A DNA stretch of 64,000 nt, from the NCBI GenBank assembly GCA_964575095.1, contig CAZNPA010000005.1, positions 26,958 through 90,957 of the forward strand, in the 5' to 3' direction. Source of the stretch: an uncultured Rickettsiales bacterium (lineage in GTDB: Bacteria; Pseudomonadota; Alphaproteobacteria; Rickettsiales; SXRF01). The notes beneath the pieces were generated by a model. It was not told the DNA's origin, did no database searches, and was given only the letters and a program-made list of their open reading frames with translations. Below are positions 27,450 to 54,538 of the stretch, piece after piece. The position numbers and the translations under genes are program-made. Position 1 is the first letter of the stretch, and every line of letters starts with the position of its first letter.

Positions 27450-28127
27450 ATGTGGAAAATAGGACATCGCGGTGCCTGTGGGCATGCTCCCGAAAACACG
27501 CTCGCCTCGATGAAAAAGGCGCTGGAGCTGGGCGTGCACGGCTTCGAATTCGACATCCAGATGAGCAAGGACGGCGAGCCGATGGTCATCCACGACGACA
27601 CGCTCGACCGCACGACGAACGGCAAAGGCGCCGTCGCCGATTATTCGTGGAAGGAATTGCAGCAGTTCGATGCGGGAGGCGGCGAAAAAATTCCTAATTT
27701 GCGCAATGTGCTGGATCTCGTCGACAAGCGCTGCCGCCTTTTCATCGAGCTTAAGGCCGAATCCGCCACGGCGCCGGTCGCCGACATTTTGAAATATTAC
27801 GTCGAGCAGATGGGCTGGACGTATGAGCAGCTTTATGTGTGCGCATTTGATCATTTCCAAATCGCCGCCGCGAAAAAATTCAATCCCGACCTTCGCACCT
27901 CGGCGCTGATTGCCGGAATTCCGGTCACGCTCGCCGCCATCGCGCAGGAGGCAGGCGCGTGGTCGATTAACCCCAACATCAATCATATCCATAAAGCGCT
28001 GGTCGACGACGCCCACCGCCGCGGCTTAAAAGTCCTGACGTGGACGGCGAATACACCGGCGCAGATCGCCAAGGCAAAAAGCCTGAACGTGGATGGGATC
28101 TTCAGCGATTTTCCGGAGCGGATTTAG
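27450..28127 (+). CDS. glycerophosphodiester phosphodiesterase family protein
   Basis: The internal ATG gives MWKIGHRGACGHAPENTLASMKKALELGVHGFEFDIQMSKDGEPMVIHDDTLDRTTNG, the GDPD signature. The upstream part of ORF 27342..28127 is not homologous. Confidence 0.85.
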   Translation: MWKIGHRGACGHAPENTLASMKKALELGVHGFEFDIQMSKDGEPMVIHDDTLDRTTNGKGAVADYSWKELQQFDAGGGEKIPNLRNVLDLVDKRCRLFIELKAESATAPVADILKYYVEQMGWTYEQLYVCAFDHFQIAAAKKFNPDLRTSALIAGIPVTLAAIAQEAGAWSINPNINHIHKALVDDAHRRGLKVLTWTANTPAQIAKAKSLNVDGIFSDFPERI

Positions 28128-28133
28128 TTTCTT

Positions 28134-28222
28134 ATCCTGAGCGAGCGTAGCGAGTCGAAGGAACTTTAACCTGGCAACTCGCAAAGATCCTTCGACTTCG
28201 GCCTTCGGCCTCCGCTCAGGAT
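28134..28222. repeat. palindromic repeat element (intergenic copy)
   Basis: atcctgagcgagcgtagcgagtcgaagga...tccttcgacttcg...ccgctcaggat forms a long imperfect hairpin with ATCCTGAGCG/CGCTCAGGAT termini. It sits between convergent genes. A sibling copy lies at 44538-44635. Confidence 0.8.
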
Positions 28223-28229
28223 GTTGTGG

Positions 28230-30770: not shown

Positions 30771-32759
30771 ATGGAGAAAAAAAAGCATATCGAGCAGTCG
30801 CTGTCCGCGGCGGCCGCCTTGCATCAGGCCGGTAACCTGAATGAGGCGGAAACCGCGTACCGCGCCGTTCTCCTGTCCTACCCCACCAACCCCGACGCCC
30901 TGAAACTGCTAGGAATCCTTAACATCCAGCGCGGCAATCCCGAAGAAGCGCTGCGGTGCATCGATGCGTGTCTGCACGTCAAGCCGTCGCAGCCGGACAT
31001 GCTCAACAACCGCGCCAATCTCCTGAAATTTTTCAAACGTTACGACGAGGCGCTGGCCAGCTACGATAAAGCCATCGCGCTTAAACCCGATTACGCCGAC
31101 GCCTATTACAATCGCGGTGCCACGTTGCAGGAAATAAAACGCTATGACGACGCGCTGGCCAGTTACGGCAAAGCCATCGCGCTTAATCCCGCCTATGCCG
31201 AAGCCTATAACAACATGGGCGTCACGCTGTGGGAACTGAAACGATACGACGAGGCACTGGCCAGTTACGGCAAAGCCGTCGCGCTGAACCCGGCCCATGC
31301 TGAAGCCTATAACAATATGGGCACGCTTTTTCTGGGGTTGAGCCGCTACGACGAAGCGCGCGACCGCTACCGGCAGGCGTTGGCGCTGAATCCGGACACG
31401 CCCTACGCCATGGGGGACTGGCTATACGCAAAAATGCACCTGGCCGACTGGCAGGGGATGGACGAAGGTCTGGCGCGGCTGGCGCAGAACATAGAAGCAG
31501 GCAGGCGCGCCGCCACGCCGTTCATAATGGTGGCGACCCCTTCCTCCGAAACGCTGCAGAAACAATGCGCGGAGATGTATGTGCGGGACACATGCCCGCC
31601 CGCCGCCTCACCGCTATGGAACGGCGAGAGATACGCGCACGACAAGATCCGCATCGGTTATTTCTCGGCGGATTTCCACAGCCACGCCACCGCCTACCTG
31701 ATGGCGGGGCTCCTCGAACGCCACGACCGCTCGCGGTTCGAGGTGACCGCATTCTCGTTCGGCTCGCCCAAAGACGATGCCATGCGCGATCGCATCGAGA
31801 AAGCCTGCGACCGTTTTATCGACGTCAGCGCCACATCCGACCCGGAAATAGCGGCGCTGGCAAGGAACATGGAAATCGACATCGCCGTCGATCTGAAAGG
31901 CTTCACCCAGAACGCAAGGACCGGGATTTTCGCGCTGCGTCCGGCGCCGGTGCAGGTGAACTACCTCGGCTATCCCGGCACCATGGGCGCGAGCTACATC
32001 GATTACATCATCGCCGACGCCACCGTGATTCCGGAAAATCATCAGCGCTATTACAGCGAAAAAATCGTCACGCTTCCCCATAGCTATCAGGTCAACGATT
32101 CCTCCCGCATCATCTCCGACAGCAAATTCAACCGCCGCGAATTGGGATTGCCGGAGACCGGTTTCGTGTTCTGCTGCTTCAACAGCCATTACAAAATCAC
32201 CCCGGATGTGTTTGCCATCTGGATGCGCCTGCTTTCAGCGGTGGAAGGAAGCGTGCTCTGGCTGTTCGAAGGGCATCCGGCCTGCGTCGCCAACCTGCGC
32301 AAAGAAGCCGAATCGCGCGGCGTCAAAGGCGAGCGGCTGGTATTCGCCCCGCGCATGAACGCAGCAGAACATCTGGCGCGACACCGGCTCGCTGATCTTT
32401 TCCTCGATACGCTCCATTGCAACGCCCACACCACCGCCAGCGACGCGCTGTGGGCGGGGCTTCCGGTGCTGACCTGTCTCGGCGAAACCTTTGCGTCGCG
32501 CGTGGCGGCGAGCTTGCTGAACGCGGTGGGACTGCCGGGGTTGATTGCGCGATCACCGCAGGAATATGAAACGCTGGCGCTGGAACTTGCCACCCATCCG
32601 CAAACACTATCCGGCGTGCGCGCCACGTTGGCACAACACCGGAACGCCCATCCACTCTTCGACACGGCGCTTTTCACCCGGCATCTGGAAAACGCCTATG
32701 CAACAATGTGGGAACGATCGCAGGCCGGTCTTAAGCCTGATCATATTTACGTTAGGTAA
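30771..32759 (+). CDS. TPR-repeat protein with a C-terminal SPINDLY/OGT-like glycosyltransferase domain
   Basis: This 662-aa ORF has about 6 tandem 34-aa TPRs (RYDEALASYGKAIALNP x several). A GT41-like C-terminus follows (IRIGYFSADFHSHATAYL..., NYLGYPGTMG..., FNSHYKITP...). Confidence 0.8.
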   Translation: MEKKKHIEQSLSAAAALHQAGNLNEAETAYRAVLLSYPTNPDALKLLGILNIQRGNPEEALRCIDACLHVKPSQPDMLNNRANLLKFFKRYDEALASYDKAIALKPDYADAYYNRGATLQEIKRYDDALASYGKAIALNPAYAEAYNNMGVTLWELKRYDEALASYGKAVALNPAHAEAYNNMGTLFLGLSRYDEARDRYRQALALNPDTPYAMGDWLYAKMHLADWQGMDEGLARLAQNIEAGRRAATPFIMVATPSSETLQKQCAEMYVRDTCPPAASPLWNGERYAHDKIRIGYFSADFHSHATAYLMAGLLERHDRSRFEVTAFSFGSPKDDAMRDRIEKACDRFIDVSATSDPEIAALARNMEIDIAVDLKGFTQNARTGIFALRPAPVQVNYLGYPGTMGASYIDYIIADATVIPENHQRYYSEKIVTLPHSYQVNDSSRIISDSKFNRRELGLPETGFVFCCFNSHYKITPDVFAIWMRLLSAVEGSVLWLFEGHPACVANLRKEAESRGVKGERLVFAPRMNAAEHLARHRLADLFLDTLHCNAHTTASDALWAGLPVLTCLGETFASRVAASLLNAVGLPGLIARSPQEYETLALELATHPQTLSGVRATLAQHRNAHPLFDTALFTRHLENAYATMWERSQAGLKPDHIYVR

Positions 32760-32760
32760 A

Positions 32761-32786
32761 TGGTGCTGCTGAGAGGAATCGGACCT
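32761..32786. repeat. direct duplicate of the 3' end of tRNA-Thr (att-like)
   Basis: The 26 nt tggtgctgctgagaggaatcggacct are identical to 32862-32887 (T-arm, acceptor 3' strand and CCA of the tRNA). The copy starts 2 nt after the stop of the TPR/OGT gene. Confidence 0.85.
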
Positions 32787-32861: not shown

Positions 32862-32936
32862 TGGTGCTGCTGAGAGGAATCGGACCTCCGACCCCGTCAT
32901 TACCAATGACGTGCTCTACCACTGAGCTACAGCAGC
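32862..32936 (-). tRNA. tRNA-Thr (anticodon GGU)
   Basis: A manual cloverleaf fold gives gctgctg-ta-gctc-agtggta-gagc-a-cgtca-ttGGTaa-tgacg-gggtc-ggagg-tccgatt-cctct-cagcagc-a-cca. The T-loop reads UCCGAUU, so C sits at the normally invariant U55. Confidence 0.8.
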
Positions 32937-43481: not shown

Positions 43482-44054
43482 TCAGCGGTACGGAAACCAA
43501 CCTTCAGACGGCACTCGGCTAAAATCACTTCTAATTTTAGCAAAAATTTCTTCGGCAACTTTCCGCATTTCGAATATTACCGCCGTAGTCATATCGAGAT
43601 ATTGATCGCCTAATCCGGGATACGCCGGAATATCTTCAAATCTGGATTCCTTGAATTCTTTAGGAAGAGCCGCGATTACCCCATCCAATGCCGCGCTTAA
43701 GTCCGGAGACAATGCATTGGGCTGAATTCTTTTCTTAGCCTTCTCCAAATAAGATTCGCTATATAACAGGAGGCGATGAAAAATCTCCGCCCCGCCAGGG
43801 CTTTCTAATATTTTTTTAACGGCCATTCGCCCCAAGAGCTGATAGGGACCGTTTGAATTCGGATGCTGCATTTCATAAGATTCTGTAACCATCCGTAAAA
43901 TCACGTCCGGCTGAAGCCGCACAAACTCGCGTAGCGCATCATTGTAAATCGCATCGCTCATTCTGCTCAAGTCGCCGCTACGCAGTAATTTATCAAGAAA
44001 ACCCACGCCAAGTCTTCCTTTTCTATTTATTGCTACCCATGCGTAATGTATCAT
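43482..44054 (-). CDS. hypothetical protein (190 aa)
   Basis: This is an ORF-track entry. The sequence is visibly more AT-rich than the flanking synthetase genes, and I recognise no family. Confidence 0.5.
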   Translation of the reverse strand: MIHYAWVAINRKGRLGVGFLDKLLRSGDLSRMSDAIYNDALREFVRLQPDVILRMVTESYEMQHPNSNGPYQLLGRMAVKKILESPGGAEIFHRLLLYSESYLEKAKKRIQPNALSPDLSAALDGVIAALPKEFKESRFEDIPAYPGLGDQYLDMTTAVIFEMRKVAEEIFAKIRSDFSRVPSEGWFPYR

Positions 44055-44068
44055 AACTTTGCCTAAAT

Positions 44069-44851
44069 ATGAAGCTCCCCATCATCATCCTTGTTCGCCC
44101 GCAGCTGGGCGAAAATATCGGCGCGGTAGGCCGGGCGATGGCGAATTTTGGCTTGTCGGAACTCAGAATTGTGGCGCCGCGCGACGGCTGGCCGAATACA
44201 AAAGCATTGGAGATGGCCTCTGACGGAAAATCCATCGTCGAAGCGGCCAGAATATTTCCCGATTTGGTTTCGGCGATGCACGATATACAAATCGCCTACG
44301 CCACGACGGCGCGGCCGCGCGACATGGAAAAGCGCGTGGTGACGCCGGAGGTGGCTATGGCGGAGATAGATGCCGACGCTACGCGCTACGCCTTCGTCTT
44401 CGGGCCGGAGCGCACCGGGCTTGAGAACGAGGAAATCGTGATGTGCGATACGTTGATTACCATCCCGACCGACCCAAAAAAATCATCGCTCAACCTCGGC
44501 CAGTCGGCGGTGGTGGTGCTGTATGAGTGGTTTACTTGTCATCCTGAGCGAGCCGGAGGCGAGTCGAAGGATCTTCGGCATGGCAAGGTAATAGATCCTT
44601 CGACTTCGTCGCTACGCGACTCCGCTCAGGATGACAAGCTCGCCACCAAGAAAGACTGGCAAGGCTTGTTCGACCAGCTGGAAAGCTGCCTCGATGAGGT
44701 GAATTATTACCGCACGGCGCACAAGAAGCCGGTGATGTGGCAGAACATGAAGAATATGCTGCTGCGCGGCGCCTGGAACGAGCAGGAAGTGCGCACGTTT
44801 CGCGGCATGCTGCGCATCCTGTGGGAAGGACGAAAACCCCGGCGCAAATAA
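44069..44851 (+). CDS. SpoU/TrmH-family RNA 2'-O-methyltransferase (TrmJ-like) carrying an in-frame palindromic-element insertion
   Basis: This 260-aa ORF has ILVRPQLGENIGAVGRAMANFGL..., FVFGPERTGLENEE and IPTDPKKSSLNLGQSAVVVLYEW. An approximately 33-aa segment encoded by the repeat then follows. Confidence 0.85.
   Translation: MKLPIIILVRPQLGENIGAVGRAMANFGLSELRIVAPRDGWPNTKALEMASDGKSIVEAARIFPDLVSAMHDIQIAYATTARPRDMEKRVVTPEVAMAEIDADATRYAFVFGPERTGLENEEIVMCDTLITIPTDPKKSSLNLGQSAVVVLYEWFTCHPERAGGESKDLRHGKVIDPSTSSLRDSAQDDKLATKKDWQGLFDQLESCLDEVNYYRTAHKKPVMWQNMKNMLLRGAWNEQEVRTFRGMLRILWEGRKPRRK
44538..44635. repeat. palindromic repeat element inserted in frame within a CDS
   Basis: gtcatcctgagcgagccggaggcgagtcgaaggatc...gatccttcgacttcgtcgctacgcgactccgctcaggatgac has 13-bp terminal inverted repeats. 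It shares blocks with the 28134-28222 copy. It is translated as HPERAGGESKDLRHGKVIDPSTSSLRDSAQDD. Confidence 0.8.
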
Positions 44852-45002
44852 CGCACCGGTTGAAAAATGAGAATAATGCCGGTTAATATACTGTAATTAA
44901 TTAATAAAAAAACGTGATGAATCTCGGATATAAAAAAATATTCTAGTATTACGGGTAATGTGCTATGTACGGCATAGTGCAAATGATCCGGATAAAACCG
45001 TC

Positions 45003-46685
45003 ATGAAGAAACCCGCCCTGTTTCCTGCCCACGATTTCCAGATGCTGTTTGAATCGGTGCCCGGGCTTTATCTGGTGCTGACACCCGACCTCAGAATCAT
45101 TGCTGTCAGCAATGCCTATCTGCGCGCCACCATGACCAAACGCGAAGATATCCTCGGCCGAAAACTATTCGATATCTTTCCCGACAATCCGGATGATCCG
45201 AAAGCAACGGGAGAGCGTAATCTTAAATCATCGTTGCAGCGGGTATTGACTCACAAAATCACCGATGCCATGGCCATCCAGAAATACGACATACGCAAAC
45301 CGGAATCGGAAGGAGGCGCCTTCGAAGAACGCTACTGGAGCCCGGTCAATTCTCCCGTATTGAATGAACACGGGGAACTGATCTATATCATCCACCGCGC
45401 CGAAGACGTGACCGAATTCGTAACACTCAAGCAAAAAGACAAAGAATACCTCAAGGAAAATGAATCGCTGCGCATCCATGCTGAACAGATGGAAGCCGAA
45501 ATCTACGCCCGCGCGCAGGAAATAGCCGAAGCCAACCGTGAGCTGGAAAAACTATACGAACTCACCAAGAAAGAAGGTATGGCCCAGTTGCGCGCCGTCG
45601 TCGACCATGCGATCGACGGGCTTATCACCATCGACGCACGTGGGCATATCGAACGCTTCAACCCGGCCTGCGAGCGCATTTTCGGCTATAAGGCCGAGGA
45701 AGTCACCGGCCGCAACATCAAGATGCTGATGCCGGAACCCTACCACAGCGAACATGACGGCTACCTGAACAACCACCTCACCACCGGCAAGACAAAAATC
45801 ATAGGCACATCGGGACGCGAGGTGTCCGGCCGTCGCAAGGACGGATCGGTATTCCCGCTCGATCTTTCCGTCAGCAGCTTCACGCTCGACGATGGCGTAC
45901 ATTTTTCAGGCATCCTGCGCGACATCACGGCACGCAAACAGGCGGAAGAGCGTCTGGAAATGGCGGTGAGCGAATTGACCGAGTCCAACCAGCAGCTTGA
46001 GCGCTTCGCCCACATCTGCTCGCATGATTTGCAAGAACCGATCCGCGTCATCTCCAATTACACCGAGCGCCTTGCCCAGCACATGGCATCCTCCATGGAT
46101 GAAAAGGCGAGCCATTACATGCATTATATCGTTGACGGCGCCGCGCGTGCGCGGGAGCTGATCGGCTCCATACTCACCTATTCTCGCGTCGGCACCGAAA
46201 CCGAACCGCTGGAAACCATCGATTGCCGGGATCTGCTGGCCACCGTGCTGACGGATCTGGAACAGGCCATACAGGAAAGCGGTGCGCGGATAACGTTCGA
46301 TACGCTGCCGATCATTACCTGCCATCCGCCGCGTATGCGGCAACTGTTCCAGAATTTGCTGACCAATGCCCTCAAATTCCGCCGCAGCGACGTGCCGCCG
46401 CACGTGCATATCGGCGCCGAACGCAAAGGCGACGGCTGGCAATTCTCCGTCCGCGACAACGGCATCGGCATCGCGCCCGAATATAAGAATCGGGTGTTCG
46501 TCATCTTCCAGCGACTCAACCGGCGCGATGAATATCCCGGCACCGGCATAGGTCTGGCGTTGTGCAAAAAAATCGTCGAGCAGTACGATGGGAAAATCTG
46601 GCTCGAATCCCAGCCGGGCGAAGGCACCTGCTTCTTCTTCACCTTGCCGACGCTACGCCCGCAAGAAATGGCACAAACCGGCTAG
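45003..46685 (+). CDS. PAS-domain sensor histidine kinase
   Basis: Two PAS-like regions are followed by the H-box FAHICSHDLQEPIR and the HATPase N/G boxes (LLTNALKF, RDNGIGI, GTGIGLALCKKIV). The start is the ATG at 45003 within ORF 44958..46685. Confidence 0.88.
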   Translation: MKKPALFPAHDFQMLFESVPGLYLVLTPDLRIIAVSNAYLRATMTKREDILGRKLFDIFPDNPDDPKATGERNLKSSLQRVLTHKITDAMAIQKYDIRKPESEGGAFEERYWSPVNSPVLNEHGELIYIIHRAEDVTEFVTLKQKDKEYLKENESLRIHAEQMEAEIYARAQEIAEANRELEKLYELTKKEGMAQLRAVVDHAIDGLITIDARGHIERFNPACERIFGYKAEEVTGRNIKMLMPEPYHSEHDGYLNNHLTTGKTKIIGTSGREVSGRRKDGSVFPLDLSVSSFTLDDGVHFSGILRDITARKQAEERLEMAVSELTESNQQLERFAHICSHDLQEPIRVISNYTERLAQHMASSMDEKASHYMHYIVDGAARARELIGSILTYSRVGTETEPLETIDCRDLLATVLTDLEQAIQESGARITFDTLPIITCHPPRMRQLFQNLLTNALKFRRSDVPPHVHIGAERKGDGWQFSVRDNGIGIAPEYKNRVFVIFQRLNRRDEYPGTGIGLALCKKIVEQYDGKIWLESQPGEGTCFFFTLPTLRPQEMAQTG

Positions 46686-46693
46686 TCGGCGGT

Positions 46694-46744
46694 CTAACTC
46701 CGCCAGCGCAGGGTTTTTTCGCGCAGGCGGTTTTCAAACGGCGC
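46694..46744 (-). pseudogene. relic: last 16 codons plus stop of a Rieske-oxygenase gene
   Basis: The minus strand reads APFENRLREKTLRWRS*, identical in protein to the end of the intact gene at 47429-47479. There are 4 nt differences, all silent (cgt/cgc, agc/agt, TGA/TAG). Confidence 0.85.
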
Positions 46745-46812
46745 CTGGAGCGAGCAGGAAGTGCGCAGTTTCCGCGGCATGCTGCGCATTTTATGGGAAG
46801 AACGGAAGCCTA
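46740..46812 (+). pseudogene. relic: last 26 codons plus stop of a trmH-family methyltransferase gene
   Basis: The plus strand reads (G)AWSEQEVRSFRGMLRILWEERKPRKR*. The intact gene at 44771-44851 reads AWNEQEVRTFRGMLRILWEGRKPRRK*. No start codon is present. It joins the Rieske relic at a shared GGCGCC (46740-46745). Confidence 0.85.
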
Positions 46813-47427
46813 GAAAACGCTAAGCAACGCCTGTAGCGCCACCGTTGCCAGCACATCGAGCGCCGTAAAAATAAACAGCATCGCCAGCACGCCGCCGATC
46901 ATCCCCACCAGCATCAACACGCCATCGCGCTCCAGCATGCCTAGTGCGATCAGGCTCATCGCCACGCCCGGCAAGAAATTTCCGAACGGAATCGGCATCG
47001 ACAGAAGTATCGCCAGCAGCAAAAATATGACGCCGACAATGCGTTCCGCCACCCAGCTATGCATGAACGGCAGCCGCGGATGCAGCACGCGCTCAATCTT
47101 GCGCACCGGCACGCACGCCTTGCGCATGAAAGCAGCGAATTTCACTCGGGAAAATTTGTATTTTCTCACTTTTTTCGGAAGCCAGGGAACGGAGCGCCCC
47201 ATAATGATCTGAACCGCGATCAGCAGAATGGGAATGCCGGTAATGGCGGAAAATCCGGGCGGACTTGGAATCGGCAACGAGTTGGGCAGCGAAAATACCA
47301 GAATCGCCAGGCCGAAAGCGCGATCGCCCAGCAGCCGGAGAATTTCCTGAACGCTGATATCGCCGTCCCCATCGGTATGCTCCACCAGTGAGTGCAAAAC
47401 ATCGGAAGTGCGTTTAGGCTGGGTCAT
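46810..47427 (-). CDS. exoD: ExoD-family exopolysaccharide synthesis membrane protein
   Basis: MTQPKRTSDVL...ISVQEILRLLGDRAFGLAILVFSLPNSLPIPSPPGFSAITGIPILL is the ExoD pattern. The start was taken at the internal ATG (47427) of ORF 46810..47547. Confidence 0.8.
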   Translation of the reverse strand: MTQPKRTSDVLHSLVEHTDGDGDISVQEILRLLGDRAFGLAILVFSLPNSLPIPSPPGFSAITGIPILLIAVQIIMGRSVPWLPKKVRKYKFSRVKFAAFMRKACVPVRKIERVLHPRLPFMHSWVAERIVGVIFLLLAILLSMPIPFGNFLPGVAMSLIALGMLERDGVLMLVGMIGGVLAMLFIFTALDVLATVALQALLSVF

Positions 47428-47428
47428 G

Positions 47429-48478
47429 TCAGCTCCGCCAACGCAGGGTTTTTTCGCGCAGGCGGTTTTCAAACGGCGCCGCAGTGGTTTGCGACTCCAG
47501 ATAATCTTTCTTGAGCTTAAAATACCAGAGCGCCTGCTGGTCGGCATCGCCTAAGAGCATCAGCGACGGATGATCGCCGCGCAGTCCTTCCATCTGTTTT
47601 TTGACGGTCTCTAAATCTTGCCGGATAAACGCCTTGCCGAACGGCGCCAGCAGCGGCCGCAGAAGATTCAAGAGCGGCATGGTGGTGAACATGAACTGGT
47701 GCAGTTGCGTATTTTTTTCGTCGATGGGTGAAAGCGCCGTCAGCAAAACGATATGATGTTTGCCGATGGTGATGTGCTCGGTGCGCAACCCCGGCAGTTG
47801 AAACGTGATCTCGGTGACCGGCCGTCCGCCCAAGATTTTATAGGCGCGCGAATTGGACGACGGCGTGTGCGCCACCATTTTAAAACCCAATCCCACCGGC
47901 GCGAATTGCTTTTGCTTGGTATGGATCGAACGCGTACTCCGCCACCACCACGACGCATGCACGAACGGCCCGTGCGACGGATCCATGAGGCCGATCACCG
48001 CGTGGTCGATGTTGCAGGGAAAAACCACCGAGTCGATGTGCGTGAATGTTTTGTGCGCCGGGCCGGGAACCACCGGCAGATCCGGAAACGGGCCCTGCGT
48101 CTTGCTTCCGGCCGGCGGCATATACACCCAGATCAGCCCGTTTTCCTCGCGGCAGGGAAACCGTGTCGCTTTGACGCGCGAGATGTCGATGTTGTCTTCC
48201 GGCGTCAGCGACGGGATTTTGGTACAGACGCCGTCAATGCCGAAGCGCCAGCCGTGATAGCAGCATTCGATCTCGCAGCCGTCGAATTTACCGTACGAAA
48301 GCGGCATACCGCGGTGCGGACAAAAATCGCGCAGCGCGAATACATCGCCATTTTTGGCGCGGCCAAGCAATATCGGCTGGCCGAGCAGCGTGACTTTTTG
48401 TGTCTTGCCGCGCGCGACTTCCACCGCCGGAGATGCGATGTACCACAGGTTATGTAAAAGTTCGGGGATGGGGTTCAT
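47429..48478 (-). CDS. Rieske [2Fe-2S] domain oxygenase
   Basis: This 349-aa ORF has CPHRGMPLSYG...CCYHGWRF (Rieske CxH...CxxH) and a non-heme-iron catalytic domain. Confidence 0.85.
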   Translation of the reverse strand: MNPIPELLHNLWYIASPAVEVARGKTQKVTLLGQPILLGRAKNGDVFALRDFCPHRGMPLSYGKFDGCEIECCYHGWRFGIDGVCTKIPSLTPEDNIDISRVKATRFPCREENGLIWVYMPPAGSKTQGPFPDLPVVPGPAHKTFTHIDSVVFPCNIDHAVIGLMDPSHGPFVHASWWWRSTRSIHTKQKQFAPVGLGFKMVAHTPSSNSRAYKILGGRPVTEITFQLPGLRTEHITIGKHHIVLLTALSPIDEKNTQLHQFMFTTMPLLNLLRPLLAPFGKAFIRQDLETVKKQMEGLRGDHPSLMLLGDADQQALWYFKLKKDYLESQTTAAPFENRLREKTLRWRS

Positions 48479-48553: not shown

Positions 48554-48629
48554 CGACCCATTCGTCTAACGGTTAGGACACGACCCTCTCAAGGTCGCAA
48601 TACGGGTTCGATTCCCGTATGGGTCGCCA
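48554..48629 (+). tRNA. tRNA-Glu (anticodon CUC)
   Basis: A manual fold gives gacccat-tc-gtc-taacggttag-gac-a-cgacc-ctCTCaa-ggtcg-caat-acggg-ttcgatt-cccgt-atgggtc-g-cca. It is collinear with E. coli tRNA-Glu architecture. Confidence 0.85.
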
Positions 48630-50162
48630 TTCTTGAAATGTTCCGGCGCCCAGGAACAGGTCGAATGGTTTTCTCAAAGAATATTCGAGCCTTGCGCCTT
48701 TCAGCCGCAGGTTCGAAAACACGAAATTGATGAGACGCCGTTTTCCGGCCGCGTTCGAACCTACGAACAAAAAGTGCGCTTTTCCGGCCAGTTCCAGCGT
48801 ATCGGCCACGGCGTCGCGGAAACTGTCGTCAGCGGCGGTCATGGCGTTCATCAGGCCGGAAAGCTCGATCTGGCGCTGCTTGAGTTTGTCGCGCTTGCTG
48901 TCATGCTCCTCGCGGCTGACGGCATTATCCAGCAGCAAGTCCATCAACCTGTCGAGTTTGCCCTGCAGGGCAACATATTCTTTGCCCAGTTCGTCCATCT
49001 GCCGTTTGTGGAATACCTTCTCGGTCTCGCAGGCATGGCGGGTATATTCGAGCACGTCCTCGAATAAATCGGCGTCGGGCGCCATGTTCTTGAACACCTG
49101 CTCGATCTCGGCCAGCACGTCGGCCTCCCGCACCCACATCTTTTTGGCCGAGTCTTCGGGGCGGCGGCAGATGAGGTAAGTAAATTCGCCGGTATTGCCG
49201 TTGCGGTATTGCTTGGTCTTGGTATCGGCGGTCACAGTTTTGCCGCTGACGGCGCAGGTAATGAGGCCGCGCAGGGCATATTCTTTTTCCGCATAGGCAA
49301 AGGGTTTCCTGTGCCAGCCCAGCCGCACGGCCTGGCATTTGTCGAACAGCTCTTTGGAGATGACCGGCGGATAGGCATGCGGGTAGCGCTTGCCCTTGAT
49401 TTCCATTTCGCCGTAGTAGAACGGGTTCTGCAGCAGCTTGTGCATCTGCGACAGCGCCAGCGGCTCTTTTTTGCGGCGGGCGTTGGTGAGGCCCCATTTA
49501 CGGCCTTTGGTCACCATCTCGCCCAGCGTGTGGCTGCCGGTGGCGTATTCCTCGAACAGGCGGCGCACCAGCGGCGCGCGGGATTCGTCCAGCAGCACCG
49601 TGCCGCGCCCGCGGCTGTCCCTGGCGTTCGTGTAGCCCACCGGCGCGGCGGCGATCCATTCGCCGGTGCGGATCTTCTGATCGATGCTGCGCTTGACGTT
49701 ATCACGCAGCGAATCGACGTAGCTTTGCGCCATGACGACGCCGATGCTCCACATCAGCCGTTCCTGCGATACCGATTCGCGGTGGATGATGTAATTCTCG
49801 GTGTTGAAATGCAGCTCCAGCTTGCCTTCCTGAATCAGCGCGTCGAGCAGCGGGTATTCCTTGAAGCTGCGCTGAACCCTGTCCACTTTATCCGCCACCA
49901 GCGCCACGCAATCGCGCTGTCTGCGGATGAAGTCGATCATCTGCATGAAATCCTTGCGGTCGCCCTGTGTGGAGGATTCGATCACCTCGAAGGTCTGCAC
50001 AACCTCCAGCCGCTTGCGCTCGCAATATTGCTGCAGCCGGTGCTTCTGCGCGGCGATGGAATAGCCTTCCTCCTGCTCTTTCGTAGAAACGCGCGCCAGA
50101 ATGATGGCCTTTTTCGGACCATTGGGCTTATGCTGTTCAAATGGAATGATTTTTCTGCTCAT
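48573..50162 (-). CDS. large serine recombinase (integrase)
   Basis: This 529-aa ORF has an N-terminal resolvase catalytic domain (AIILARVSTKEQEEGYSIAAQ), then a recombinase domain and a coiled-coil region. The last approximately 19 codons (..PIRESNPYCDLERVVS) are read antisense through tRNA-Glu. Confidence 0.88.
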   Translation of the reverse strand: MSRKIIPFEQHKPNGPKKAIILARVSTKEQEEGYSIAAQKHRLQQYCERKRLEVVQTFEVIESSTQGDRKDFMQMIDFIRRQRDCVALVADKVDRVQRSFKEYPLLDALIQEGKLELHFNTENYIIHRESVSQERLMWSIGVVMAQSYVDSLRDNVKRSIDQKIRTGEWIAAAPVGYTNARDSRGRGTVLLDESRAPLVRRLFEEYATGSHTLGEMVTKGRKWGLTNARRKKEPLALSQMHKLLQNPFYYGEMEIKGKRYPHAYPPVISKELFDKCQAVRLGWHRKPFAYAEKEYALRGLITCAVSGKTVTADTKTKQYRNGNTGEFTYLICRRPEDSAKKMWVREADVLAEIEQVFKNMAPDADLFEDVLEYTRHACETEKVFHKRQMDELGKEYVALQGKLDRLMDLLLDNAVSREEHDSKRDKLKQRQIELSGLMNAMTAADDSFRDAVADTLELAGKAHFLFVGSNAAGKRRLINFVFSNLRLKGARLEYSLRKPFDLFLGAGTFQEWRPIRESNPYCDLERVVS

Positions 50163-50362
50163 GGCTCGACATTACCGTCACGTCCGGAGAGTTCAACCAG
50201 TGTTTGCGTGAATCCGATGAGGTTGCGCGCCGCTTCCCGCGCCTCGGCATCGGTGATCTTAAAATCGTATTTCCGCTTGATTTTATAGACGATTCGCTCG
50301 AACAGCTGCGATTGCGTCAGCTCGCTGGCCTTACGTTCGAGAATGTCCTGATCTATCGGCAT
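50159..50362 (-). CDS. hypothetical small protein (67 aa)
   Basis: This ORF-track entry overlaps the recombinase start by 4 nt. Confidence 0.45.
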   Translation of the reverse strand: MPIDQDILERKASELTQSQLFERIVYKIKRKYDFKITDAEAREAARNLIGFTQTLVELSGRDGNVEP

Positions 50363-50387
50363 GGCAATCGCTTTGACGGGAGATTGG

Positions 50388-50783
50388 CTACTCGTCGCAA
50401 TCCCTGTCCCGGCCGGGGAACATCCCGTCGCAGACCAGGTAGCCGCCTTCCGGCTTCGGAAGATCGCAGCTTTCGACCAGCCGTTCCGCTTTCCCGATGA
50501 CGGCTTCCGCCCGCCTGCAATAATCTTCGTCTATGCGGGCAAGCAGTCCCTTACCGGCGAGGCGCTGCAAAGAGCACTGGTAATTGCGGACGAACAGCCG
50601 GAGCGTATGCACGATGCCGGCGAGCGTTTCCGCTTGTCCCTGGTATTGCGCCATGAGCATATGGATTATCTCCACGCCCTCGCAGGCGTCATGGTTGAAC
50701 AGGGAGAGCGCCGAGCGCTCGTCGTAGGGAAAATACATCCAGTCTTTCCTGGCTGATTCGGTAAGGGCTTTGCGGTGGGTCAT
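50388..50783 (-). CDS. hypothetical protein (131 aa)
   Basis: This is an ORF-track entry with no family I recognise. Confidence 0.45.
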   Translation of the reverse strand: MTHRKALTESARKDWMYFPYDERSALSLFNHDACEGVEIIHMLMAQYQGQAETLAGIVHTLRLFVRNYQCSLQRLAGKGLLARIDEDYCRRAEAVIGKAERLVESCDLPKPEGGYLVCDGMFPGRDRDCDE

Positions 50784-50886
50784 GGGGTAGTCTCCTGAAG
50801 TGATGGTGGGGGGATAATTGCTAATTCCGCTAAAGCCGCTAACCGGGGCGGATAAGCAAAATCAGCAGGATTAGCGGCGGCGGCGA

Positions 50887-53274
50887 TCATGGTTTCGCCT
50901 CCAGGGCGACGGGATTGACTTCGTATTGCCGGTTGCGACCGACTGTCTGCTCGCGCAGGTAGCTGTGTTCGCAGAGCGTCTTCAGCGCCGCATGGCGCGC
51001 CGCGCGCTGGCGCAGCGGGTTGGGGCCGTGCGTGGCAATCTCGCTGGCGGTGACGGCACGGTGGTTTTTCCGCCTCAGCCAGTCGAGCAGCAGGCGCGCG
51101 TGCGTCACTTCTTCCGGCGTGTCGATATGGTTGAACACGCGCAGCGTTTCGTGCAGGTGCCATTCCACGATGGCAATGGCGCGGCGCATGACGTCCGCTC
51201 CTATGTCGCCGTCAGCGCCATGCTGGAAGATATGGAAGTTGCAGGCGAGCCTGGCGGCGTTCTCCGCCGACTTGGCCGCGAAATCGCGGATGGAGTAGAA
51301 TTGCCCCTGCGCGGCGATGGCGGCTTCCGTCTCATTATAATACGCCACCCAGAGCTGGCGCGCTTCGGCGCTCAAGGAAAGAAGCGGCGGCGTCAGTTCG
51401 CCGGTTTCCTGATCCACCGGCAATGGCATTTCCAGCAGCGCATGGATGCGCGCATGGAACGCCTCCAGTACGCGGTCGAGCGATTGAGGCTCTTTGTAGA
51501 AGCGCGTGCCCATTGTGCTGTCCGGGCAGGCCAGCAATACGCGGGCAAGAAAGCCGGTATTGCGGCTCTGGCCGTCGGCCATATTGACCAGCGCCTTCAG
51601 CACTGAAAGCTGCATCATCAGCGAACAGGTCAGCCGCCTGCCGTAGAAGCTCGCGCCCTCGCTGGTAATGCGCTGGCGCTTGTAACCATTACCGTCCCAC
51701 AGCCGGTTGACCAGGCCGAAATAGCGCAGGCAACGTTCCGGGTGGAACCCATGTGAGCCAACGACGATGGCGGCTTCGTCACTATAGAGCGCCGACGATG
51801 GATGCCCCTTGGCCAGCTCATCGATCAATGCCTCCTGCGTCACGTCCTCGAACAGCAGCGTCGGGATGATGGGCAGGCGTGGCGCGTCTTTATCCAATCC
51901 CTGCAATGCTTCCTGCAGCGCGGCGAGTTGATCCGCCGTGCCGCCGTTCTTGCTGGCGCCGGTGATCTGCTGGATGATGCCCGCGCGAGTGGCCATATAG
52001 GCATCGACCAGGATTTTCGCCTGCTTCAACTCCGCCTGCATGGCGAGCCGCCGCGTCTTTTCCCATTCTCTTGACGCCTTGGAGAACACCTTATCGGCGG
52101 AGGTCTTGCGCTCGCCGCTGTCAGCGGTGACGATGAAATTGAGCGACGACGGGCCGGTCAGCGCCTCGTCGCGCGCCACGTCCGCCAGCGCCTGACTGGC
52201 CAGGCTGACATTCGCCAGCGCCGCGATGGCGACGATGGGAAGCGGCTGCTGGCCATACGCCTGGTAGCCGGCCACGGCCTCGCGGATAACGTCCGGCAGC
52301 GCCTCCACCGGGTACGGTTCCTGCGCGGCGATTGCCTGCGTCAGCGGCGTAGGCATCTGCCACTCGCTAATGCTGGCATTGCTAATTCTGCTAACCGTCC
52401 GGTCGCCATTAGCAGTATTAGCAGATTCAGCGTTAGCAGGAATGTCGCGCGGCTTCTGCTTTCCGGCGGTGATGCCGCTGTCGATAGTGGGTGTAATCTC
52501 CGAATCTTCCAGCCCGATGGCGCGCGCGGCGGCGTGCAGTTCGCGCCTTACCGTATCCTCGTCCAGACCCGCCGCGATCAACTGGCCGAGGCTGAATGAT
52601 GCACGGTTCAGCCGGTCATTGCGCTGTCCGTCGAGCGCCTGTGTCAGTATTGTCAGTTCGCTTTCCAACGCCTTGCCGAGATACGTTCCGGCGGGAACAT
52701 TGTCCGCCGCGCCGTTGAAATCCAGCTTCTGGCTATCTTCCGGCACGGCCACCAGCTCCAGCAGCCATAAAGGCGCTTCCGCCAGCGGCGCATCCCACGG
52801 GCTGACGATCCACTCATACACTGAACCATTCGGATGGATTGACGGCGGCGCGACGACATAGCCGCCGTTACCGCGATTGTCGATGCCGGGCAGCACTTCG
52901 CCATGCACGCTTCGGCCTGCCAGATTGCGCACATCATATCCGGCGGGGAATCGGAAATAATAATGCTGTCCCCTGCCGGTTCTGGCGGTAGGCGTATGCG
53001 GCAGATCGCCGTGTTCTGCAATCAGCTTCGCCAGCATCTCGCGCCCTTGCTCGCCGTCCACGTCCAGCACGAAGCAGCCCGACACGCTGCCGGTGGCGAT
53101 GCCGATATTGTAGGGGTTATAGCGGTAGGCCGTTTCCCAGGCGACGCATTGCGCCGTCGTCGCCAGGGCAGTCTGGTATTCCTTCCAGCTGCCGACAGGC
53201 TTTTTGCTGCGGGGCAGAAGCGGAAAGACGCTGAAATTCAGCTCCCGCAGGCCGGAGAATGGTGCGTTATTCAT
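50887..53274 (-). CDS. bifunctional primase-polymerase (PrimPol) N-terminal domain fused to a DUF3987-type helicase-like domain
   Basis: This 795-aa ORF has VFPLLPRSKKPVGSWKEYQ...GIATGSVSGCFVLDVD...GGYVVAPPSIHPNG (PrimPol). The C-terminal two-thirds resemble DUF3987/D5-like replicases of phage satellites and integrative elements. Confidence 0.8.
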   Translation of the reverse strand: MNNAPFSGLRELNFSVFPLLPRSKKPVGSWKEYQTALATTAQCVAWETAYRYNPYNIGIATGSVSGCFVLDVDGEQGREMLAKLIAEHGDLPHTPTARTGRGQHYYFRFPAGYDVRNLAGRSVHGEVLPGIDNRGNGGYVVAPPSIHPNGSVYEWIVSPWDAPLAEAPLWLLELVAVPEDSQKLDFNGAADNVPAGTYLGKALESELTILTQALDGQRNDRLNRASFSLGQLIAAGLDEDTVRRELHAAARAIGLEDSEITPTIDSGITAGKQKPRDIPANAESANTANGDRTVSRISNASISEWQMPTPLTQAIAAQEPYPVEALPDVIREAVAGYQAYGQQPLPIVAIAALANVSLASQALADVARDEALTGPSSLNFIVTADSGERKTSADKVFSKASREWEKTRRLAMQAELKQAKILVDAYMATRAGIIQQITGASKNGGTADQLAALQEALQGLDKDAPRLPIIPTLLFEDVTQEALIDELAKGHPSSALYSDEAAIVVGSHGFHPERCLRYFGLVNRLWDGNGYKRQRITSEGASFYGRRLTCSLMMQLSVLKALVNMADGQSRNTGFLARVLLACPDSTMGTRFYKEPQSLDRVLEAFHARIHALLEMPLPVDQETGELTPPLLSLSAEARQLWVAYYNETEAAIAAQGQFYSIRDFAAKSAENAARLACNFHIFQHGADGDIGADVMRRAIAIVEWHLHETLRVFNHIDTPEEVTHARLLLDWLRRKNHRAVTASEIATHGPNPLRQRAARHAALKTLCEHSYLREQTVGRNRQYEVNPVALEAKP

Positions 53275-53479
53275 GCGCGCCGCCCTGCGTATTGCGCGCG
53301 ATAAATTCCCGAAGATCGGACAGGCGGTATTTCACCAGTCGCCCGACCTTGATATAAGGGAGCCTGTAGCGTCCCTCGCTGGCCCATACCGATAGGGTAT
53401 TTTCCGCGACGCCGAGATAATCGGCCGCCTCCTTCCGCGTAAGCAGCCGCTCACCGTCTGGATGTTCTGAATGTGTCAT
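53267..53479 (-). CDS. AlpA/Xis-like helix-turn-helix DNA-binding protein
   Basis: This 70-aa ORF has LLTRKEAADYLGVAENTLSVWASEGRYRLPYIKVGRLVKYRLSDLREFI, the excisionase/MerR-type HTH. It overlaps the replicase start by 8 nt. Confidence 0.8.
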   Translation of the reverse strand: MTHSEHPDGERLLTRKEAADYLGVAENTLSVWASEGRYRLPYIKVGRLVKYRLSDLREFIARNTQGGAHE

Positions 53480-53651
53480 GCTGCACCTCCGTCATGCGTG
53501 ATAATAGGAGGTCAGCGTGGACGAAAAATAATCGAAAAAAAACGTCGGAACCGTCACGACGTCAAGGGTGGCACCCTGGGTGCTACCCAGAAAATATCAA
53601 GAGAATAGAATCAGTTCATGGGTGGCATGCTTTGCTTTTTTCAAGCCCTTT

Positions 53652-54416
53652 TCAGGCAAGGGTTTTATCCTTCTTCGGCACGGCTATCCGGTTGCCGCCC
53701 TTCCGCGATTCAGGAGTGCGGATAAATGTGGCCATGTCCTCCACATTGCTTTTGGAAAGTTTAAGCCCCTTCTTCTTTGCCTGCTCCGCCACCCATTCCC
53801 TGACGCTGTCTTTATAGGGCGGGTCGGACTCGTCGATGTCGAAATATTCCGCCGCTTCCAGCATCAAATGGATATACGGCGAAATATAATAATCATATGG
53901 CTTTACGGGCATCTGGCCGCCAGGCGGCGTAGCGATGGCTGTGCTGTTCTGGCGCTCTTTCACCAGCGCGACGGTTTCCGCCGGCACGTCTTCCCTGCGC
54001 TGGAAGAATACGCCGACGTAATGCAGGCCGTGCCCCGACGCTTCCGATTTTTCGGGGTCGAGATCGAGAGAAAGCCAGTAATGCGGCATGATGATCTCGA
54101 CGGCGCTCTGCGGCGTCACCGGCAGCGGCGTACCGAAGCCATACAGCGCCTCCTGCGACAGCAGATAGTGCGTAATGTGGCGGTAGGCAGTCTTATCGAT
54201 GCGGTCGAGATAATTATCAAGCGCTTTCATCTCATCGGCGAATACCTGCCGGTCGTGATCGTTCTTGCGGCACTGGATAAACATATCCTGCGCGAACTTC
54301 TTCTCGCGCAGGCATTCGTCCAGGCGATCCTTCAAATCCGGGCGCATGGCGATGGCGATATTGCGCAGCTGCACGAGGGTAAAGCGTTCGGCGTCGGGAT
54401 TGAACAGCATGGGCAT
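53652..54416 (-). CDS. hypothetical protein (254 aa)
   Basis: This is an ORF-track entry with no family I recognise. Confidence 0.5.
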   Translation of the reverse strand: MPMLFNPDAERFTLVQLRNIAIAMRPDLKDRLDECLREKKFAQDMFIQCRKNDHDRQVFADEMKALDNYLDRIDKTAYRHITHYLLSQEALYGFGTPLPVTPQSAVEIIMPHYWLSLDLDPEKSEASGHGLHYVGVFFQRREDVPAETVALVKERQNSTAIATPPGGQMPVKPYDYYISPYIHLMLEAAEYFDIDESDPPYKDSVREWVAEQAKKKGLKLSKSNVEDMATFIRTPESRKGGNRIAVPKKDKTLA

Positions 54417-54538
54417 GACATCGTAATTGAAACGCCGTCATCATACTGAGCATGATGAATTTATACCAGAAGTGATTTGGATGGATGAGGATACAAAAAG
54501 CCCCGTACCATTTTGAAACGGTACGGGGCGGGAAAAAT

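Follow-up and report, generated by a model that had tools for sequence, protein, structure and literature searches.

A probable microhomology scar between two variants of a convergent trmH–Rieske locus in an uncultured alphaproteobacterium

Introduction

Why should the ends of two genes, each of them present in full close by, lie back to back between the stop codons of two other genes? This arrangement occurs in the 64,000-nt stretch of DNA analyzed here (hereafter the window), which comes from an uncultured alphaproteobacterium. The gene order is trmH> HK> (Rieske' tail)(trmH' tail) <exoD <Rieske, with HK standing for a histidine kinase gene. For brevity, the 3' ends of the intact trmH and Rieske genes are called tails A and B, their displaced counterparts relics A' and B', and the kinase and exoD genes cargo X and cargo Y (Table 1). 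What event could have left the two displaced ends behind, between which partners, and in which direction?

Table 1. Positions of the genes, tails, junction sequences and candidate blocks of the locus within the window
Feature	Position	Strand	Details
Intact trmH, SpoU/TrmH-family RNA methyltransferase	44069..44851	+	260 aa; Pfam PF00588, E = 2.4e-26
Parental CGGCGCC within the intact trmH tail	44767..44773		
Proposed incoming block	44767-46738		New trmH tail, spacer, kinase and Rieske' tail
Tail A, 3' end of intact trmH	44771..44851	+	26 codons and stop
AT-rich spacer 5' of the kinase	44852..45002	+	Composition profile
Predicted promoter-like site in the spacer	44860-44889		Promoter scan; putative function
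Cargo X, orphan PAS-PAS-HisKA-HATPase histidine kinase	45003..46685	+	Pfam; alternative start 44958
Relic B', displaced Rieske 3' end	46694..46744	-	16 codons and TAG; 8 nt past the kinase stop
Junction CGGCGCC, common to both relics	46739..46745		7 nt; D1 starts at 46739, D2 ends at 46745
Relic A', displaced ancestral-type trmH 3' end	46743..46823	+	26 codons and TAA
Incoming block in the mirror case	46746-47480		trmH' tail, exoD and new Rieske tail
Cargo Y, exoD	46810..47427	-	205 aa from ATG at 47427; Pfam PF06055, E = 2.6e-59
Intact Rieske [2Fe-2S] oxygenase gene	47429..48478	-	349 aa; Pfam PF00355
Tail B, 3' end of the intact Rieske gene	47429-47479	-	
Parental CGGCGCC at the intact Rieske tail	47474-47480		
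tRNA-Glu(CTC)	48555..48629	+	ARAGORN; promoter region conserved with L083
Large serine recombinase	48573-50162	-	Pfam

Two displaced gene tails meet at a shared heptamer

Relic B' encodes APFENRLREKTLRWRS followed by a stop, a peptide identical to the end of the intact Rieske product. The two Rieske tails match at 47 of 51 nt, and the stop codon is TGA in the intact gene versus TAG in the relic. Relic A', translated on the plus strand from 46743, reads AWSEQEVRSFRGMLRILWEERKPRKR and a stop, and the intact trmH tail (44771-44851) encodes AWNEQEVRTFRGMLRILWEGRKPRRK and a stop. The stop of relic A' occupies 46821-46823, its final 14 nt overlapping the stop and last codons of exoD. The start of exoD is most likely at 47427, 1 nt from the Rieske stop, and the kinase start given in Table 1 was taken from the gene call on contig L001.

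These results largely bear out what a first-pass annotation had described. Repeats and translation confirm its two gene tails lying back to back between the kinase and exoD, and translation also confirms that the Rieske relic is protein-identical to the intact end, with 4 nt differences that are all silent. For the trmH relic, the claimed frame, stop, and 7 synonymous plus 5 conservative codons hold, with the five replacements better described as mostly conservative; the end of this relic had been placed at 46812 and in fact lies at 46823.

Both pairs of tails were recovered by a repeat search as direct repeats. Repeat D1 (44767-44838 and 46739-46810) is 72 nt long and 86% identical, with a spacing of 1972; repeat D2 (46698-46745 and 47433-47480) is 48 nt long and 98% identical, with a spacing of 735, and contains a 39-nt identical run of the Rieske tails. 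In a self-BLAST of the window, D1 and D2 have E-values of 5e-17 and 6e-16, hence they lie beyond chance, and they are among the strongest repeats of the window.

The junction itself is directly visible. Rieske tail and trmH tail adjoin in this order, each in the orientation of its intact copy, and the two share the sequence at which they meet. That this sequence lies at the same point of both parental genes had been noted before and stands; its extent is corrected from the 6-nt GGCGCC to the 7-nt CGGCGCC. GGCGCC is palindromic, so that one and the same sequence appears whether it is read as Gly-Ala codons in a plus-strand gene or as Ala-Pro codons in a minus-strand gene. The heptamer occurs 70 times in the 64-kb window versus ~44 copies expected and, being this common, requires no special site to be invoked for the join. 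Within the blocks that it delimits, the kinase is the sole gene of 44767-46745 and exoD the sole gene of 46746-47480.

The relics diverged as parts of working genes

Between the trmH tails there are 19 differences over 81 nt, which amount to 7 synonymous and 5 non-synonymous codons (N/S, T/S, G/E, R/K and K/R). Frame and stop are kept, with no frameshift and no premature stop in the relic. The 4 differences among the 51 nt of the Rieske tails are silent in every case, including the TGA to TAG change. We simulated divergence by placing 19 random substitutions on the intact trmH tail in 200,000 runs. The simulated mean was 12 amino-acid changes versus the 5 observed, and the probability of at most 5 changes in a tail that kept its stop and gained no premature one was P ~5e-6. 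The all-silent pattern of the Rieske tail had a simulated P ~0.004. This signature of purifying selection is an observation in its own right, and from it we conclude that the relics diverged from their intact counterparts while they were parts of working genes. The claim that the relics came from functional, diverged genes rather than from the decay of a local duplicate is thus supported by both P-values. Random, frame-breaking divergence, which would have spoken for such decay, was looked for, and the pattern proved non-random.

The relics have undergone little or no neutral decay since the join, which therefore is recent relative to the divergence of the tails. How far apart were the two parents? 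The trmH tails of the window match each other at 58 of 69 gap-free nt, and between-genus comparisons give 53-60 of 69. Relic A' matches the trmH tail of L083 at 60 of 69, marginally nearer than its match to the resident intact tail, in an alignment of tails (69-81 nt) that is saturated at the present sampling of relatives. Divergence at this between-genus level suggests that one of the trmH tails derives from a lineage far beyond the species boundary. Identity is 92% for the Rieske tails versus 77% for the trmH tails, a contrast that over 17 codons is not significant; gene conversion between Rieske repeats 735 nt apart could have caused the higher identity.

Relatives share the trmH/exoD overlap and a slot of variable content

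No close relative was present in any of the collections searched, the best trmH being 69% and the best Rieske gene 77% identical. Homologs of the trmH gene reach 64-69% identity to that of the window, Rieske homologs up to 77%, and exoD is 69-73% identical to the exoD genes of L083 and L173. Among GTDB species representatives, trmH identity goes up to ~45%. Scans of GTDB genomes and JGI metagenomes with trmH returned chiefly 40-50% identical genes of the Hyphomicrobiales type, and no exoD, Rieske or kinase genes were found near these matches. Exact-protein look-ups gave no record for the kinase, exoD and Rieske products, and trmH matched contig L001 alone. With the nearest relatives only 69-77% identical, no ancestral or unrearranged state was recovered.

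At this distance, the relatives still share one arrangement. In L083/L084 (trmH 68%), trmH and exoD converge and share 14 nt at their ends; the overlap is likewise 14 nt in L173 (trmH 68%) and is 20 nt on the JGI contig with P0008 (trmH 65%), where it lies within the same gltX-cysS-trmH synteny as in the window. Relic A' ends in KR before its stop, opposite the LLSVF end of exoD, and the same endings are seen in L173. This directly observed conservation, with the 14-nt exoD overlap as in relatives, indicates that relic A' was once a working trmH end, of ancestral type and in the ancestral position. Tail A terminates in PRRK, does not overlap exoD, and ends, at its RRK and stop, without the complement of the exoD stop. 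This is the ending expected if tail A evolved in a lineage that had no trmH-exoD overlap.

The gene content of the interval from cysS to tRNA-Glu is different in each relative examined, and this interval is a variable slot. L086/L087, which have the closest Rieske gene (77%), carry the order Rieske>, a 306-aa gene of unknown function>, <trmH. A convergent trmH...Rieske slot with variable cargo therefore exists. Rieske homologs at 72% identity lie in unrelated gene contexts. The trmH-kinase-Rieske arrangement was found in no genome searched and trmH-exoD-Rieske in no genome besides this window, and the kinase was absent from trmH in all relatives examined. Of the predictions made from the first reading of the locus, a trmH...Rieske locus with variable cargo is thereby supported by L086/L087, with a different cargo, while parents bearing the kinase and exoD were not found among the relatives. 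tRNA-Glu(CTC) bounds the variable locus on the right and is where an adjoining island is attached; it lies outside the scar.

Cargo genes and composition

The best full-length homologs of the kinase, in L091 and L092, are 58-61% identical. They stand first in unrelated signaling operons, whose further genes encode two response regulators, a hybrid kinase and a GGDEF-EAL protein. The kinase of the window (44958-46685 with the alternative start) is an orphan, followed by none of the genes of these operons. In plasmid and phage collections the kinase had domain-level matches only, and the adjacent island was unmatched.

Contrast in codon usage or GC content on the two sides of the junction had been suggested as a further check, and no usable contrast was seen. 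Third-position GC content (GC3) and synonymous-codon likelihood of the kinase and Rieske genes are mid-range for the window; the codon usage of exoD is mildly low and the least typical of the four genes. Within the window, composition, GC3 and codon usage give no sign of foreign origin for either half. The lack of compositional contrast fits a related donor and proves nothing.

A probable microhomology join between two locus variants

We consider it probable that the locus carries the scar of one microhomology join between diverged, functional variants of a variable-cargo locus, made by homology-facilitated illegitimate recombination or an equivalent process. The 118-130 nt between the kinase and exoD would be the scar of a single illegitimate recombination event, in which a Rieske 3' end was joined to a trmH 3' end at the 7-nt CGGCGCC microhomology. 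The partners would have been two diverged, functional versions of one convergent trmH...Rieske locus: one, which we infer, whose cargo was a PAS histidine kinase (trmH> HK> <Rieske), and one whose cargo was exoD (trmH> <exoD <Rieske). The product would hold both cargos and one complete frame for each flanking gene, with the displaced tails as non-coding relics back to back. The cargos are unrelated and the flanks bear a selection signature, so the partners are to be seen as diverged versions of the locus and not as sister copies. The recombination of two locus variants through microhomology, as originally suggested, thus agrees with the functional, diverged parents, with the join and with the variable cargo; the kinase-bearing parent was not found.

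As to the enzymology, the likeliest route would be uptake of DNA from a related lineage, with homologous pairing in one flanking gene anchoring the incoming strand and the microhomology join closing the other end. Unequal exchange between the resident chromosome and an incoming one could serve as an alternative route, as could the formally equivalent Campbell-type integration of a circle excised between two CGGCGCC sites. Concerning direction, we lean towards a resident trmH> <exoD <Rieske and an incoming 1,972-bp block with the kinase (44767-46738), because the trmH/exoD synteny is conserved in relatives. In the mirror case, which we think unlikely, the resident was trmH> HK> <Rieske, and the 735-bp block 46746-47480 was inserted with its anchor in the Rieske gene and a join at CGGCGCC. 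The structure is fully symmetric, exoD is the gene with the least typical codon usage, and the Rieske tails (39-nt identical run, 98% over 48 nt) are a far better pairing substrate than the 77-86% identical trmH tails. However, three relatives have gltX-cysS-trmH-exoD, with ends that overlap, as their backbone, loss of exoD and its regain at the same place would take one extra step, and the codon signal of exoD is weak.

Could the join have arisen in the computer rather than in the cell? The organism is uncultured, the window lies on a 112.7-kb contig, and the junction is known from one assembly: the sole independent contig from the same organism, L001 from Logan, is identical and only 1.7 kb long, covers trmH and the kinase start, and breaks off within the kinase. 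The longer contig might have been stitched together from two co-existing strains that differed in cargo. We regard such a chimera as very unlikely, since the halves share 7 nt at the join, far under the k-mer of any assembler, and since a graph walk through the shared 39-48 nt of Rieske tail would reach the Rieske body and not the trmH tail. Taken together, these two points imply that the B'/A' junction would need real molecules containing it. An old tandem duplication within the genome, of a unit running from the trmH tail to the Rieske tail and joined at CGGCGCC, would create precisely the B'/A' topology, as the join point of a duplication at a short junction sequence; the cargo would have been replaced and the copies would have diverged later. 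This reading is highly improbable in our judgment. The kinase and ExoD belong to unrelated Pfam families, homology is limited to 51-81 nt at each end, and a precise swap of exoD for the kinase between two stops would be needed. Moreover, relics of a duplicate should decay randomly, but the 23 differences give only 5 mostly conservative replacements. We give almost no credence to a site-specific integrative element that targeted the 3' end of trmH (or of the Rieske gene) and brought a replacement tail, the repeats being attL and attR. Each cargo block is indeed flanked by direct repeats of a gene's 3' end, and an island with a serine recombinase lies 1.8 kb away. Yet neither block encodes an integrase or recombinase, the neighboring island has tRNA-Glu as its attachment point and shows the same boundary in the relic-free L083, the block ends in a piece of a different chromosomal gene that is joined through a common heptamer, and the kinase block recurs at trmH in no relative examined.

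Comparison with known events

Homology-facilitated illegitimate recombination is described for natural transformation of Acinetobacter baylyi, Streptococcus pneumoniae and Pseudomonas stutzeri, where non-homologous DNA is added beside a homologous anchor (PMC6382021). The junction microhomology in these systems is 3-10 bp and typically GC-rich, a range into which the 7-nt, GC-rich CGGCGCC falls (PMC6382021). Those events were characterized by experiment, with both donor and recipient known, whereas the scar described here is read from sequence data. There was also no loss of recipient DNA at the scar, so that both displaced tails survive, unlike in the experimental cases.

Three other classes of event share features with the locus. 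In bacteria, unequal exchange between sister chromosomes produces tandem duplications with join points at short junction sequences. As at such a join point, a downstream Rieske tail here runs into an upstream trmH tail in direct orientation with few shared bases; unlike in a tandem duplication, the "copies" in the window hold unrelated cargo, and their flanks are 77-92% identical with a signature of selection. Campbell-type insertion-duplication is a single crossover of a circular molecule that carries a homologous fragment. It likewise doubles the homologous segment on either side of the inserted block and leaves the target gene intact, but here the circle would first need an illegitimate join of two CGGCGCC sites, and no vector or replicon sequence is present at the locus. 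Genomic islands that target tRNA, tmRNA or protein genes integrate at the 3' end and supply a replacement end. In both situations the displaced, diverged 3' end stays as a direct repeat and the incoming copy restores the gene; in contrast to such islands, the block lacks an integrase, and its distal end is a fragment of a second chromosomal gene instead of an element terminus. Overall, we see in the locus a well-preserved natural case, from a sparsely sampled lineage, of an already known class of event, and no new mechanism or molecular system.

Natural scars of illegitimate recombination are rarely so legible, with both displaced ends intact and the microhomology visible in both parents. The locus offers sequence-level evidence of gene gain through recombination between lineages in an uncultured alphaproteobacterial group that is without cultivated or closely sequenced relatives, and it shows how a closely packed convergent pair can take up a further gene without inactivation of either neighbor. 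It is a long shot that the interleaved pairs of repeats (trmH tails 1,972 nt apart, Rieske tails 735 nt apart) also make the locus a resolvable stacked allele. If this were so, exoD would be lost by RecA-mediated deletion between the Rieske tails, and the kinase by deletion between the trmH tails; either loss would cleanly restore one of the parental layouts and keep the two flanking genes whole. A population could in that case hold kinase-only, exoD-only and both-cargo forms of one slot that interchange by loss.

Other features of the locus and the window

Several functional or mechanistic roles for the relic region were considered and set aside. The folding z-score is 0.07, which gives no indication of a role in RNA structure. 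In the Rieske relic, a scan revealed no terminator-like site, and the terminator-like match in the trmH relic (46773-46786, plus strand) is at chance level, with 7 such matches found versus 7.3 expected. Restriction and ligation at the palindromic GGCGCC had nothing in its support, the motif being over-represented and not avoided. A tie to the serine-recombinase island was rejected as well: this island sits at tRNA-Glu in L083 too, and L083 is without the relic.

The integrative island that adjoins tRNA-Glu(CTC) lies in the interval 48555-54500 of the window, and an island of the same type lies at the same tRNA in L083 (2186-7460). Its genes encode a 529-aa large serine recombinase, a 67-aa protein, a primase of the Prim-Pol/D5 type, an HTH_17 protein and a 248-aa protein. 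At its 3' end, the recombinase open reading frame (ORF) overlaps the 3' part of tRNA-Glu; a second copy of the tRNA-Glu 3' end was not found in the window. The recombinase is 89% identical to that of L083 versus 68-70% for the flanking host genes, hence the island appears to move horizontally. At another tRNA gene, tRNA-Thr(GGT), the 3' end is present as an exact 26-nt direct repeat (32761-32786 and 32862-32887), 101 nt from the gene. This repeat may be the attachment-site remnant of a lost integrative element.

Between cysS and trmH, which directly adjoin each other in L083 and L173, the window has a 190-aa ORF (43482-44054, minus strand) without a Pfam match. Its GC3 is 0.43 versus 0.6-0.8 elsewhere, and its codon-usage likelihood is the lowest in the window. 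This ORF probably entered the same variable region as a foreign insertion of its own. On the minus strand, a hairpin resembling a terminator and followed through 44839-44859 with a T-run overlaps the trmH stop, with no minus-strand gene upstream of it now; it may be a leftover of an earlier arrangement or a chance match.

Diverged tandem-like repeats occur at 14545-15538 and 31035-31395, with units of ~340 nt at 78-88% identity in one and of ~102 nt at 76-79%, inside the ORF 30771-32759, in the other. Finally, the variable linker of trmH contains, in frame, a palindromic element of ~100 nt (44535-44638) with a 16-nt perfect terminal inverted repeat, CTTGTCATCCTGAGCG. Its other copy, intergenic at 28126-28223, is 80% identical. 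The trmH linker of P0002 has a peptide resembling that of the element, and past the Rieske stop of L088 lies a CHPER-type motif. The element looks like a small REP/MITE-like repeat that tolerates insertion in coding sequence.
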